Source: Escherichia coli
GTDB lineage: Bacteria; Pseudomonadota; Gammaproteobacteria; Enterobacterales; Enterobacteriaceae
Length of the DNA stretch: 64,000 nt
Assembly: GCF_003334815.1 (NCBI RefSeq)
Contig: NZ_QOWO01000004.1
Reading direction: 5' to 3' (one strand)
Below, one piece after another: positions 51,547 to 61,257 of this stretch. Made by a program: the position numbers and the translations under genes. Position 1 is the first letter of the stretch, and each line of letters starts with the position of its first letter. The notes under the pieces are model-generated. The model was not told the DNA's origin. It was given only the letters and a program-made list of their open reading frames with translations, and ran no database searches.

Positions 51547-52635
51547 ATGAATAACCGGGAAAAGGAGATCCTTGCAATTTTACGGCGTAACCCGCTGATT
51601 CAGCAGAACGAAATTGCGGACATGCTGCAAATCAGCCGTTCGCGCGTTGCGGCGCATATTATGGATTTAATGCGCAAAGGCCGGATTAAAGGCAAAGGTT
51701 ACATTCTCACCGAGCAGGAATACTGCGTAGTGGTGGGGACAATCAATATGGATATTCGCGGGATGGCGGATATCCGTTACCCGCAATCGGCTTCTCATCC
51801 CGGTACAATTCATTGCTCAGCGGGCGGCGTGGGACGCAACATCGCCCACAATCTGGCGCTGTTAGGCCGTGACGTCCATTTGCTTTCAGTGATTGGCGAT
51901 GACTTTTATGGCGAAATGCTCCTGGAAGAAACGCGCCGTGCCGGCGTGAATGTCTCCGGCTGCGTTCGTTTGCATGGTCAAAGCACATCGACGTATCTGG
52001 CAATTGCCAATCGAGACGATCAAACCGTGCTGGCGATTAACGATACCCATCTGCTGGAACAGTTGACACCGCAACTACTGAACGGGTCGCGCGATTTACT
52101 TCGTCATGCGGGCGTGGTACTGGCTGATTGCAACCTGACAGCCGAGGCGCTGGAATGGGTCTTTACCCTCGCTGATGAAATCCCGGTGTTTGTCGATACC
52201 GTTTCAGAATTCAAAGCGGGCAAAATCAAACACTGGCTGGCGCATATTCACACCCTGAAACCCACTTTACCGGAGCTGGAAATTTTATGGGGACAGGCGA
52301 TCACCAGCGATGCTGACCGTAATACCGCAGTGAATGCATTGCATCAGCAAGGTGTTCAGCAACTGTTTGTTTATTTGCCCGATGAGTCAGTTTATTGCAG
52401 CGAAAAGGATGGAGAACAATTTTTGCTGACCGCGCCAGCGCATACGACAGTAGACAGTTTTGGTGCTGACGATGGTTTTATGGCGGGCCTGGTATATAGC
52501 TTTCTTGAAGGATACAGTTTCCGCGACAGCGCCCGTTTTGCGGTAGCCTGCGCGGCAATTTCGCGCGCCAGCGGCAGCTTAAACAACCCTACCCTGTCTG
52601 CCGATAACGCGCTTTCATTAGTGCCAATGGTGTAA
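51547..52635 (+). CDS. yeiI: PfkB-family sugar/nucleoside kinase with N-terminal HTH (362 aa)
   Basis: ORF track; paralogous to psuK plus an N-terminal HTH-like segment. Confidence 0.8.
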   Translation: MNNREKEILAILRRNPLIQQNEIADMLQISRSRVAAHIMDLMRKGRIKGKGYILTEQEYCVVVGTINMDIRGMADIRYPQSASHPGTIHCSAGGVGRNIAHNLALLGRDVHLLSVIGDDFYGEMLLEETRRAGVNVSGCVRLHGQSTSTYLAIANRDDQTVLAINDTHLLEQLTPQLLNGSRDLLRHAGVVLADCNLTAEALEWVFTLADEIPVFVDTVSEFKAGKIKHWLAHIHTLKPTLPELEILWGQAITSDADRNTAVNALHQQGVQQLFVYLPDESVYCSEKDGEQFLLTAPAHTTVDSFGADDGFMAGLVYSFLEGYSFRDSARFAVACAAISRASGSLNNPTLSADNALSLVPMV

Positions 52636-58214: not shown

Positions 58215-59143
58215 TCTGCGTTCTCCACTAACGATATAACGTTGGCAATCGATAAATCGGGGTTATTGGTGTATTCACAGGAGAGCGCCATTGACGAACA
58301 TCCCTGTGCGAAACGAACAGATTCGGCAAACGGCATTCCGTCTACCCAACACGAAGCAAGTCCCGCCATCATGGCATCGCCCGCTCCGGTAACATTAATA
58401 ACATTGGTTTTGATCGGCGCAGACCAGCCACTTTCACCGCTGATATCGCTGTAATAAACGCCGTCGCCGCCCATGCTCAATACCAGTCGGTTCAGGCCAT
58501 GTTGATGGAACCAGGCAGCAACTTTTGCCACATCTTCACGCCCTGACAGCGCAATCCCACTCAGGGTTTCCGCTTCAAGGCGGTTTGGCTTGAGAGTGTG
58601 GATCTGATTTAGACGGTCGCGCACTTTGACACATTTCCATGCCGAAACCGGATCGACAAATACGGGTACGTTGGCGGCATTATCCAGAATCCATGCCAGT
58701 GCCTCTTCACTGATATTACAGTCCGCGACAATGACCTTTGCCCTCTGAATAAATTCACCGTGCTGTGCGAGATATTCAGCTGTAATAGCGTTGCTAATAT
58801 TCATGTCATTTATAGCAACCAGCATTTCACCGGTATTATCGAGTAATGATAAATAACTCGACGTATTTTCTCCCGGCACAATCAGGCATTTATCGACATA
58901 AACGCCAGATTGATTGGTTTGCGTTAGCAGCGATTGACCATAAAAATCACTGCCTACGGCGCTCAGTAGCCAGGCTTTGTTACCCAGCAACGCCAGGTTT
59001 TGTGCAATATTGCGCCCTACTCCACCAGGCGTAAATTTTATTTTACCTGGATTTGAATCCGCATAATTTAATGATTCATGTGAATATCCGGCGACATCAA
59101 TATTCGCCGAACCTATAATTACGACATAATCCTTTTCGCGCAT
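58202..59143 (-). CDS. psuK: Pseudouridine kinase, PfkB family (313 aa)
   Basis: ORF track; 13-nt overlap with the psuG start. Confidence 0.85.
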   Translation of the reverse strand: MREKDYVVIIGSANIDVAGYSHESLNYADSNPGKIKFTPGGVGRNIAQNLALLGNKAWLLSAVGSDFYGQSLLTQTNQSGVYVDKCLIVPGENTSSYLSLLDNTGEMLVAINDMNISNAITAEYLAQHGEFIQRAKVIVADCNISEEALAWILDNAANVPVFVDPVSAWKCVKVRDRLNQIHTLKPNRLEAETLSGIALSGREDVAKVAAWFHQHGLNRLVLSMGGDGVYYSDISGESGWSAPIKTNVINVTGAGDAMMAGLASCWVDGMPFAESVRFAQGCSSMALSCEYTNNPDLSIANVISLVENAECLN

Positions 59144-59210
59144 AGCACGTCCTCTGGTAAAAAATTACCAACCCTGTCAATCCACAAGAATATAGATACT
59201 GCAAAGACGG

Positions 59211-59246
59211 TTTAAACATGTGTTCATATTTAAACATGTGCTCATA
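59211..59246. repeat. Perfect tandem 18-bp direct repeat upstream of psuK
   Basis: TTTAAACATGTGTTCATA followed immediately by TTTAAACATGTGCTCATA; one mismatch. Confidence 0.7.
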
Positions 59247-59380
59247 GTATGCATGTTTTACGTAAAGTAAATTACCGCCAGAGAGGCAAAATGGGCAGAT
59301 TTGAGCAGGCTCACAAAATGCGATTAAATGCCTGAATTACAAAAGCGAGGAATTTGTGACGGGATGCACAGAACAGAACA

Positions 59381-59410
59381 ATAAAAAAGGGCAGAAAATA
59401 ATCTGCCCTT
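59381..59410 (-). terminator. Intrinsic terminator of fruBKA
   Basis: AAGGGCAG-loop-CTGCCCTT followed by TTTTTT on the minus strand. Confidence 0.75.
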
Positions 59411-59565
59411 GAGGAAATAACCTGAGTGTTTGATGAACGTTTGAAGTTTCTACTGAAAAATAAAACCATTTAAATTCATAAAATTACATTCACAAACCGG
59501 TCATTCTCTTTGCGCTCATCAAATGTTACAGGACAGGAAATTTCTGCCCTGTAACACACCTTTTA

Positions 59566-61257
59566 TTACGCTGCTTTCGCTACTGCGTCCACTTCCGGAC
59601 GTTTCAGGAAGGCATAGGCCAAACCCGCCACCAGCGTACCGGCAATAATTGCTACCAGGTAACCCAATACCGGCGTAATAGCGCCAGGGATCAGCAGAAC
59701 AAACAGACCACCGTGCGGTGCCATCAGTTTCGCACCAATCGCCATTGAGATTGCGCCAGTCAGCGCCCCACCCACGATACAGCACGGCAGCACACGCATC
59801 GGATCACGAGCAGCAAACGGAATTGCACCTTCCGAAATGAAGCACAGTCCCAATACCAGAGCGGCTTTGCCACCTTCCTGCTGCGCTTTGTCGAATTTGC
59901 GACGCGCCACCATTGTTGCCAGACCCATTGCCAGCGGTGGCACCATACCTGCCGCCATAATCGCCGCCATCGGGCCATAGGTTTGAGTACTCAGCAGACC
60001 CACACCGAATGCGTACGCTGCTTTGTTTACCGGACCGCCCATGTCAGTACACATCATGCCACCGAGGATCGCCCCCAGCAGAACCGCATTCGCAGTCCCC
60101 ATGGTCTGCAGCCAGTGAGTCAGCCCTTCGAGAATGCCAGCAACTGGTTTACCGATCAGGTAGATCATCGCCAGACCGACCACCAGACTGGAAATTAGCG
60201 GAATGATCAGGATCGGTTTCAGCGCCTCCATACTCTGTGGCAGTTTCAATTGCGTACTGATTAACTTCGCAATGTAACCAGCCAGGAAGCCCGCAATAAT
60301 ACCACCAATGAAGCCAGAACCGGTGCTGACCGCCAGCATACCGCCAATCAGACCCGGAGTGAGGCCCGGACGATCGGCAATGGAAAAGGCAATATAACCT
60401 GCCAGTACCGGCACCATCAGCGCAAAGGCTGAACCACCACCAATCTGCATCAGCGCCGCAGCCAACGTACCCGGCTCTTTAAACGCTTCGATACCAAAAG
60501 CAAAAGAAAGCGCGATACACAGACCACCTGCAACGACCATCGGCAGCATGTAAGAAACGCCCGTCAGCAAGTGACGGTATGCGCCTGCACTCTCTTTCTT
60601 ACTTTCAGTGGTCGCCGTTTGAGCTTTGCCCGCCGGTTCATACGGCGTTGCTTCAGCAACCGCTTTATCCAGTTCCTGCGCGGTTTTCTTCAGCGCCAGA
60701 CCGGTAGAGGTACGATACATCGGTTTACCAGCAAATTTCGCCAGATCCACTTCGATATCTGCCGCCACAATCACCAGATCCGCTGCTGCGACTTCTTCGG
60801 GAGTGATTGCATTACCCGCGCCAACAGAACCACGGGTTTCAACTTTCACCCACCAGCCACGTTTTTTCGCTTCGGTTTCAATGGCTTCAGCCGCCATAAA
60901 GGTGTGTGCTACGCCAGTCGGGCAAGCAGTCACCGCAACTACGCGTTTCGGACCGCTGGCGGCAACTGGTGCTGTCGCAGCGACCGGCGCAGTGTAAGGT
61001 TTCGCATGGCCTTTGGCTTCACTCAGGAACAGCTCAGGGTGCGCAACTGCCCGGGAAATATCGCCCAGCCAGACATTTTTACCGTTCAGCGCGCTGTCGT
61101 TCGGGATGGAATCACCGAGAACAATCGCCATTTCAGCGTCGTTCGGATTGTCGATGATTTCCAGTTTTGCTTTTCGCGCCGCCGCGCCCAGCAGGGTCTT
61201 CGCCATATAGGCGCGTGCCTGACCGAGATTAGCGTCAATAATCAGCAGCGTTTTCAT
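59566..61257 (-). CDS. fruA: Fructose PTS EIIB'BC component (563 aa)
   Basis: ORF track; synteny. Confidence 0.9.
   Translation of the reverse strand: MKTLLIIDANLGQARAYMAKTLLGAAARKAKLEIIDNPNDAEMAIVLGDSIPNDSALNGKNVWLGDISRAVAHPELFLSEAKGHAKPYTAPVAATAPVAASGPKRVVAVTACPTGVAHTFMAAEAIETEAKKRGWWVKVETRGSVGAGNAITPEEVAAADLVIVAADIEVDLAKFAGKPMYRTSTGLALKKTAQELDKAVAEATPYEPAGKAQTATTESKKESAGAYRHLLTGVSYMLPMVVAGGLCIALSFAFGIEAFKEPGTLAAALMQIGGGSAFALMVPVLAGYIAFSIADRPGLTPGLIGGMLAVSTGSGFIGGIIAGFLAGYIAKLISTQLKLPQSMEALKPILIIPLISSLVVGLAMIYLIGKPVAGILEGLTHWLQTMGTANAVLLGAILGGMMCTDMGGPVNKAAYAFGVGLLSTQTYGPMAAIMAAGMVPPLAMGLATMVARRKFDKAQQEGGKAALVLGLCFISEGAIPFAARDPMRVLPCCIVGGALTGAISMAIGAKLMAPHGGLFVLLIPGAITPVLGYLVAIIAGTLVAGLAYAFLKRPEVDAVAKAA

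Follow-up and report, generated by a model that had tools for sequence, protein, structure and literature searches.

A U-less stem-loop of the fruBKA terminator family downstream of fruA in Escherichia coli

Introduction

According to Dar and Sorek (2018, PMC6061677), stable stem-loops that are not followed by a U-rich sequence shield E. coli transcripts from PNPase and RNase II; what defines the class is an RNA 3' end just past the stem-loop, together with Rho-dependent termination beyond it. Extragenic palindromes of the REP/BIME type, located in 3' untranslated regions (3' UTRs) near the stop codon, also have no U-tail. Small RNAs (sRNAs) derived from 3' UTRs are known in enterobacteria as well, DapZ, CpxQ and SroC being examples. 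The terminator of the fruBKA operon in Enterobacteriaceae other than Escherichia, finally, is a G+C-rich stem with a short loop, AGGGCAGAGATTTCTCTGCCC, followed by a T-run (6-8 U).

The hairpin considered here lies directly downstream of fruA in a stretch of 64 kb of E. coli DNA, the whole of which is called the window below, and it shares some features with each of these systems. With the U-less protective stem-loops it has in common a stable stem-loop, free of a U-rich stretch, just past the coding region; the difference is that no 3' end is listed at the fruA hairpin, the transcript being terminated instead by an intrinsic terminator 150 nt beyond it. Like a REP it is a palindrome without U-tail in a 3' UTR near the stop codon, and in one allele of the locus (allele B, see below) a true REP pair adjoins the equivalent hairpin; however, the fruA hairpin is single-copy, unlike the REP consensus and derived from the local terminator. 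In the 4231 genomes that carry the allele of the window it was found at a median of one place per genome, instead of the many copies of a REP, and the second place recorded in some genomes is in our reading the palindrome matching itself on the other strand. As with the 3'-UTR-derived sRNAs, the long 3' UTR of fruA shares the terminator of the mRNA, and its sole echo in Rfam is a sub-threshold match to DapZ, but it has neither a conserved seed region nor a promoter. The fruBKA terminator of the other genera shares with the hairpin the stem-loop sequence (19-20 of 22 positions), the offset (16), the G+C-rich stem and the short loop, whereas the E. coli hairpin has no U-tract (3 U in 8 nt against 6-8), has no mapped 3' end, and has a stem lengthened by new complementarity of its flanks.

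We find the structure to be real and of a clear, ordinary origin, as a member of a family of terminator-derived, U-less 3' stem-loops rather than a new kind of element. We hold with moderate confidence that the fruBKA terminator stem-loop gave rise to this hairpin as a paralogous copy without U-tract, which likely acts as a passive exonuclease barrier. The positions of the features are collected in Table 1.

Table 1. Features of the fruA-psuK region in window coordinates (MG1655 coordinate = window coordinate + 2,200,153)
Feature	Position	Strand	Basis or character
fruA ORF, 563 aa	59566..61257	minus	ORF list
fruA stop TAA, with second in-frame TAA	59568-59566 and 59565-59563	minus	ORF list, sequence, MG1655 RefSeq annotation
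Proximal U-less hairpin	59523..59557	minus	RNA fold, allele comparison
Proximal hairpin core, terminator-homologous	59530..59550	minus	covariance model R1, pairwise identity
Escherichia-specific insertion (hairpin + spacer), approximate extent	59424..59564	minus	MAFFT alignment vs Citrobacter, Enterobacter
A+U-rich 3'-UTR spacer, ~112 nt	59411..59522	minus	single-copy, Escherichia-only, near-neutral
Distal intrinsic terminator	59381..59410	minus	terminator scan, model R1, Term-seq, flank alignment
psuK start	59143	minus (as fruA)	

Structure of the proximal hairpin

An earlier note on this DNA had described a nested palindrome immediately after the fruA stop codon, and the palindrome proved to be real: the 9-nt arms and the inner GAAATTTC were found as described, the positions being accurate to one base and the distance of 10 nt from the stop to the first arm correct. 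On the minus strand TGTTACAGG (59556..59548) and CCTGTAACA (59532..59524) make up a perfect 9-nt inverted repeat, and the inner palindrome occupies 59544..59537. Folding of the minus-strand RNA gave a continuous stem of 14 bp, in which 59557..59544 pairs with 59536..59523, with two G.U pairs and a 7-nt loop AAAUUUC (59543..59537); 8 unpaired nt separate the stem from the fruA stop. The wobble G59547.U59533 occurs, among the alleles sampled, in the K-12 allele only, the rest having G-C. Sequence comparison showed that the intergenic region behind fruA (b2167) is one base apart from that of MG1655.

The calculated energy of the hairpin was -21.3 kcal/mol, compared to -8.4 ± 2.45 in shuffled sequences (z = -5.27), and none of 200 dinucleotide shuffles was as stable. 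Segments of 44 nt from both strands of the entire 64 kb averaged -8.3 with a standard deviation of 3.9, which places the hairpin about 3.3 standard deviations out; it ranks just under the 30 most stable loci of the window, and these are mostly REPs and terminators. With its 14 bp and its energy it has the stable, G+C-rich stem-loop expected of an intrinsic terminator.

Relationship to the fruBKA terminator of other genera

For the comparison each species was represented by one genome, and the 80 loci used, 75 of them from outside Escherichia, all encode a close relative of FruA. A GGGCAG..CTGCCC hairpin starts 15-44 nt after the fruA stop in 34 of these 75 loci, which include Citrobacter, Klebsiella, Leclercia, Atlantibacter, some Enterobacter and others, and the commonest form of the terminator is GGGCAGAGATTTCTCTGCCC (17 loci). 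The hairpin is followed by a T-run in every one of the 34 (at least 5 T in 9) and by at least 6 T in 33. The core of the E. coli proximal hairpin can be written AGGGCAGAAATTTCCTG(C/T)CCT. In K-12 this core, AGGGCAGAAATTTCCTGTCCT, agrees with the consensus of the other genera, AGGGCAGAGATTTCTCTGCCCT, at 19 of 22 positions, and in strain B18271, where the K-12 wobble is absent, at 20 of 22; the ancestral loop ATTTC is still present. The distal terminator agrees with the consensus at 20 of 23 positions. Four Escherichia loci with allele A, the type of the window, show the form GGGCAG(A/G)(A/C)AT(T/C)TCCTGCCC at an offset of 16 nt, followed by the tail TG(T/G/A)(A/G/T)(A/T)CATT where the others have the T-run.

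A covariance model, R1, was built from 33 of the non-Escherichia terminator stem-loops with their T-runs left out, and was searched with filters off over the whole window. It scored highest at the distal terminator (27.3 bits), and the proximal hairpin came second (11.9 bits); the E-value of the latter was 2.2 window-wide, which is not significant, and 0.005 when the 155-nt 3' UTR was taken alone. Two loci were detected by R1 in each Escherichia 3' UTR. The distal terminator of the other Escherichia loci scored mostly 25-37 bits (16.6 in locus L007). Outside the window the proximal site reached 19.6-22.4 bits in most allele-A loci; the O157 allele gave about 10-15, E. albertii 20.5-21.7 and ST131 10.4. 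The match of R1 to the proximal hairpin is weakest in K-12 itself. The identity to the consensus and the R1 matches together place the proximal hairpin in the same sequence family as the terminator, and its origin as a copy of the terminator hairpin had been overlooked in the earlier note.

The Escherichia-specific segment

The gene psuK also lies downstream of fruA in C. amalonaticus, C. sedlakii, E. soli, E. asburiae, Klebsiella and Leclercia. The intergenic region between the two genes measures 422 nt in the window, compared to 284-326 nt in the other genera with psuK downstream. Alignment of the fruA-psuK intergenic regions with MAFFT showed a block of ~140 nt, present in Escherichia only, directly 3' of the fruA stop. 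The distal terminator aligned with the sole terminator of the other genera (Citrobacter, Enterobacter), and its flanks, TTTCCTCA upstream and TTTTGTG..CCTCGCAA downstream, aligned too. The stem-loop stands at either end of the block, and the boundaries of the insertion are ambiguous for this reason; the block may equally well be placed just after the first stem-loop, an ambiguity of the usual kind for duplications.

The spacer between the two stem-loops occurs at one place per genome in the 4231 E. coli genomes, and no homologue of it was found elsewhere in the window or, among the 80 other loci, in those of the other genera. A mobile element or MITE was considered in view of 11-nt near-inverted ends and was rejected, the spacer being single-copy in E. 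coli and without relatives in the window or the 80 loci. A simple tandem duplication of the terminator together with its downstream DNA was not demonstrated either, since the spacer is unlike the DNA downstream of the distal terminator: the local alignment of the two scored at the shuffle mean, and 278 of 500 shuffles gave a score at least as high. An ORF of 52 aa (59469..59311, minus strand) that runs through the terminator is interrupted in E. whittamii and looks spurious. The same applies to a 48-aa 'hypothetical protein' annotated by PGAP in some RefSeq genomes (WP_001300063.1), antisense to the spacer at 59327-59473 on the plus strand, which has no counterpart among the ORFs of at least 40 aa in the window.

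Alleles of the locus

Of 5426 complete E. coli genomes, all except one have either allele A or allele B. The former was present in 4231 genomes and the latter in 1194 (22%), including ST131; allele B also occurs in E. albertii. Within allele A the sampled hairpins take several forms. Strain B18271 has a perfect 14-bp stem, and the K-12 form, found as an exact 60-mer in 914 genomes, carries a C-to-U change that produces the G.U pair. A compensatory change from A-U to C-G (TTCCAGG/CCTGGAA) was found in AR_0015. The B1 and O157 forms contain a U.U mismatch (..GTATCA), to which an A.C mismatch is added in O157. In E. whittamii, Escherichia sp. E1V33, strain GF43 and locus L005 just the core of 8-10 bp is retained, the outer arms being different or paired in a shifted register. 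One outer pair can be followed from A-U in other species over U.U in B1/O157 to U-A in the K-12 group. The nested palindrome thus consists of a conserved, terminator-derived core and a young, E. coli-specific extension.

Allele B extends from about 10 codons before the fruA stop to the distal terminator (window ~59387-59595), as in E. coli ST131 (L001, 1555-1800) and E. albertii (L008), and the C-terminal codons of its fruA read ..KRPETQIVEKNA compared to ..KRPEVDAVAKAA in allele A. A different U-less hairpin, CATCATCGGGG..CCCCGATGATG, also located 8 nt after the fruA stop, is followed by two REPs and then by the same distal terminator as in allele A. The core of the allele B hairpin is terminator-like, with 20 of 22 positions in E. 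albertii matching the form of C. youngae. The whole looks like an old recombination or introgression tract.

Some rearranged loci were also observed. An IS200C is inserted directly 3' of the proximal hairpin (..CCTGTATCATTG|TGCACAG..) in E. coli CUVET16-819, from ~271 onward in locus L091, which corresponds to window position ~59519, between the hairpin and the remaining spacer. Escherichia sp. MOD1-EC7003 (L004, 2253-2780) has a deletion from the middle of the spacer to psuG which removes the distal terminator and psuK; its proximal hairpin, with a slightly more U-rich tail (GTCATTTTAT), would be the sole hairpin after fruA. In E. coli PigCaeca_1 an IS1B lies between the distal terminator and psuK (L093, ~340-1110).

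The comparison of the genera gives the following history. The ancestor had the terminator, AGGGCAGAGATTTCTCTGCCC-U(6-8), at ~16-25 nt after fruA, as Citrobacter, Klebsiella, Enterobacter and Leclercia have it today. Escherichia carries ~140 additional nt between the fruA stop and the terminator, and this segment opens with a second copy of the stem-loop in which GTAACATTTG stands in place of the T-run. In E. coli the flanks have become complementary, so that the stem grew to 13-14 bp. With these steps, from duplication of a stem-loop over loss of the U-tract to stepwise extension of the stem, the locus illustrates in a clean and datable way how the terminator of an operon can give rise to a long 3' UTR and to a U-less stem-loop within it.

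Both alleles are composed of a U-less copy of the terminator stem-loop, an unrelated cassette and a U-tailed copy of the terminator stem-loop, the cassette being the A+U-rich 112 nt in allele A and the REP pair in allele B. One might speculate that a hairpin-targeted insertion that duplicates terminator hairpins underlies the two-hairpin layout, an idea that we regard as very improbable. If it were true, foreign DNA that repeatedly enters and copies a hairpin would constitute an undescribed route for the growth of 3' UTRs, and also a route for the birth of U-less 'protective' hairpins.

Transcript ends and the tail of the hairpin

The earlier note had placed the intrinsic terminator of the operon about 150 nt further on and had concluded that the 3' UTR is long, and both statements were borne out. 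The terminator scan located the stem-loop AAGGGCAGAUUAUUUUCUGCCCUU at 59410..59387, followed by TTTTTT, ~150 nt downstream of the proximal hairpin. The curated Term-seq data of Adams et al. (2021, PMC7815308, supplementary file 1) list a 3' end at MG1655 2259536(-), in the M63 0.4 (M63-glucose) sheet only, as a strong peak of the class 'orphan'. This position corresponds to 59383 of the window, the last U of the distal U-run, 183 nt past the fruA stop. There is no entry in these data at the proximal hairpin (MG1655 22596xx or 22597xx); transcripts ending at the first hairpin, named in the earlier note as the contrary outcome, are thus not listed there. Since an end is listed at the distal copy and none at the proximal hairpin, RNA polymerase evidently reads through the latter, and fruBKA transcripts evidently continue to the distal terminator with a 3' UTR of ~183 nt. 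The Term-seq study is one data set with no fructose condition and fruBKA is weakly expressed in its media, so the missing end at the hairpin is weak evidence either way.

A Rho-termination region is listed in supplementary file 2 of the same study (PMC7815308) from MG1655 2259533 on the minus strand (window ~59380; score 3.5, p 3e-5). It starts 3 nt beyond the 3' end of the distal terminator, so that Rho, too, seems to restrict read-through toward psuK.

The tail of the proximal hairpin, UUGAUGAG, contains 3 U in 8 nt, fewer than the U-tract of a terminator, and a simple consensus terminator scan with a threshold of at least 5 U in 8 nt made no call there. A TransTermHP-style tail score was -1.5 for allele B, -3.1 to -3.7 for the proximal hairpin and -5.0 to -5.7 for the distal terminator. 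In the K-12 allele a stem of 13 bp is directly followed by UUUGAUG. One could imagine a tandem pair in which a fraction of the RNA polymerases stops at the UUU of a weak first terminator and the distal copy takes the rest; the strong stem of terminator origin and the intermediate score of the K-12 form (-3.7) are in keeping with this, but the poor U content, the lack of a call by the scan and the presence of a listed Term-seq end at the distal site and none at the hairpin speak against it. The tails of allele B and of the B1/O157 forms are poorer still, which would confine such an activity at most to K-12-like strains, and we regard it as improbable.

A consensus scan revealed no sigma-70-like promoter inside the fruA 3' UTR, and an Rfam scan of 58900-59900 in E-value mode gave no family at threshold. 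The match to DapZ on the distal terminator (16 bits) and a miRNA match on the palindrome (17.8 bits) were both sub-threshold and were attributed to chance. Full-text literature searches found no paper on an RNA from the fruA 3' UTR, on this hairpin or on a described terminator at this site, and the locus was not mentioned in the operon, RIL-seq and other 3'-end study tables examined.

Sequence constraint and covariation

K-12 was compared with the other Escherichia species. The divergence of the spacer (21-32%) is that of neutral sequence, four-fold degenerate sites of fruA diverging by 24-27%. The proximal core with its loop shows 1-5 differences in 25 positions (4-20%), the distal stem-loop 0-2 in 24 and the outer 5' arm 3-4 in 7, so that, on sequence comparison, only the two hairpins look constrained within the fruA 3' UTR. 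An alignment of nine sequences gave little covariation: both sides were changed in 1 of the 14 hairpin pairs, and the outer five pairs of the K-12 type were unpaired in 3-5 of the nine. The 3' region of 201 nt as a whole has a more stable fold than its shuffles (z -5.6). A long-range helix in the minimum-energy fold of K-12, formed by UUUGAUGAGCG and CGUUCAUCAAA (59523-59513 / 59439-59429), was rejected, as it lacks covariation; departures from it are broken pairs only, and it is absent from the RNAalifold consensus.

The hairpin might be thought a neutral relic, a duplicated terminator stem-loop without function whose palindrome has been kept and perfected by arm-templated mutation, i.e. by template switching during replication at a quasi-palindrome and not by selection. 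This would fit the outer arms, which are lineage-specific and fast-changing (3-4 of 7 positions between species), and the uncompensated defects in common alleles (G.U in K-12, U.U in B1/O157, A.C in O157). The region, moreover, tolerates replacement by allele B and the insertion of IS200C beside the hairpin, and the Term-seq table (Adams et al., 2021, PMC7815308) gives no 3' end for the hairpin. Set against these points are the conservation of the 25-nt core and loop, which exceeds that of the four-fold sites (4-20% compared to about 25%), and the fact that two unrelated alleles keep a U-less hairpin exactly 8 nt past the stop. A relic without function is for us unlikely, though to be taken seriously.

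The same data bear on the proposal, made in the earlier note, that the 3' UTR holds a regulator site or gives rise to a 3'-UTR-derived sRNA. The ~183-nt 3' UTR with a good terminator, the strong 'orphan' Term-seq peak in M63 glucose and the fold of the 201-nt region would suit an sRNA or a site bound by an RNA-binding regulator, Hfq or ProQ for example. The spacer, however, evolves at the neutral rate and its long-range helix is without covariation; the ~140-nt segment is absent from the other genera with the fruA-psuK arrangement and is replaced by a different hairpin and two REPs in 1194 of 5426 E. coli genomes; and no internal sigma-70-like promoter, Rfam match or literature record was found. 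A spacer that is neutral, and that 22% of E. coli have exchanged for other sequence, gives no support to a conserved regulator or sRNA in the 3' UTR, and we consider this proposal very improbable indeed.

A DNA operator was considered as well, in which TGTTACAGG-N15-CCTGTAACA would bind a dimeric transcription factor, for instance one acting on psuKG downstream. The perfect 9-nt inverted repeat has the form of such a site, but its outer arms are not conserved in E. whittamii, E1V33, GF43 and L005, all of which possess psuK: TGTTAC/GTAACA is replaced by GAACAA../..TATCA or similar sequences in other Escherichia species that keep the gene. The conserved part is the terminator-derived core, and the site lies ~380 nt upstream of psuK, beyond a terminator, while a tandem repeat at 59211-59246 is a much better operator candidate. 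Binding of a transcription factor to the palindrome is hardly credible to us. The sRNA or regulator-site reading and the operator reading are the least supported of the alternatives.

Possible role of the hairpin

By analogy with described U-less stem-loops, the proximal hairpin most likely constitutes a passive barrier to 3' exonucleases, or has no role; it would not be a sequence-specific regulator site. U-less stem-loops are known to block PNPase and RNase II, and for this reason a barrier is taken as the most likely effect. The transcript would carry a stable stem-loop without U-tail 8 nt after the stop, and when the spacer is cut or the distal terminator removed, 3'-to-5' exonucleases may halt at the hairpin and thereby spare the coding part of fruBKA. 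REP elements behave in this manner, as do the U-less stem-loops found where Rho-terminated transcripts end. Against such a barrier stands the finding that no 3' end just past the hairpin is listed in the one curated table, in which a stable trimmed species should leave one.

The position of the hairpin suggests in addition a brake on translation termination, in which a stem 8 nt past the stop codon would impede the terminating ribosome and lower the output of FruA. For REP hairpins whose distance to the stop codon is under 16 nt, an effect and a distance rule are summarised in a passage of PMC12306157 that cites its reference 17. The distance of 8 nt from stop to stem is common to allele A and the unrelated allele B, as such a brake would have it, but the published effect concerns REP sequences and not this hairpin. 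In the other genera the terminator hairpin is 15-44 nt away from the stop, which means that close spacing is not a conserved property of fruA, and the spacing could merely mark the place where the duplicated hairpin landed. A brake of this kind, proposed by analogy, would seem quite improbable.

A passive barrier is retained as the preferred reading of the hairpin. The value of the analysis is mostly negative, in that the palindrome is not worth pursuing as a regulator site or sRNA unless new expression data become available. As two alleles that differ greatly are still found side by side in E. coli, the locus offers a convenient natural test case for the effects of such hairpins on mRNA stabilisation or on translation termination.

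The region upstream of psuK

Some 70-100 nt before the start of psuK, at 59211-59246, lies a tandem direct repeat of 18 nt, TTTAAACATGTGTTCATA followed by TTTAAACATGTGCTCATA, which is conserved between fruA and psuK in Escherichia, Citrobacter and Enterobacter. The repeat is probably the operator for a regulator of psuKG, and as a candidate for protein binding it is far superior to the hairpin. A paralogue of PsuK is encoded at 51706-52623 on the plus strand, ~6.5 kb away, with 39% identity over 307 aa.
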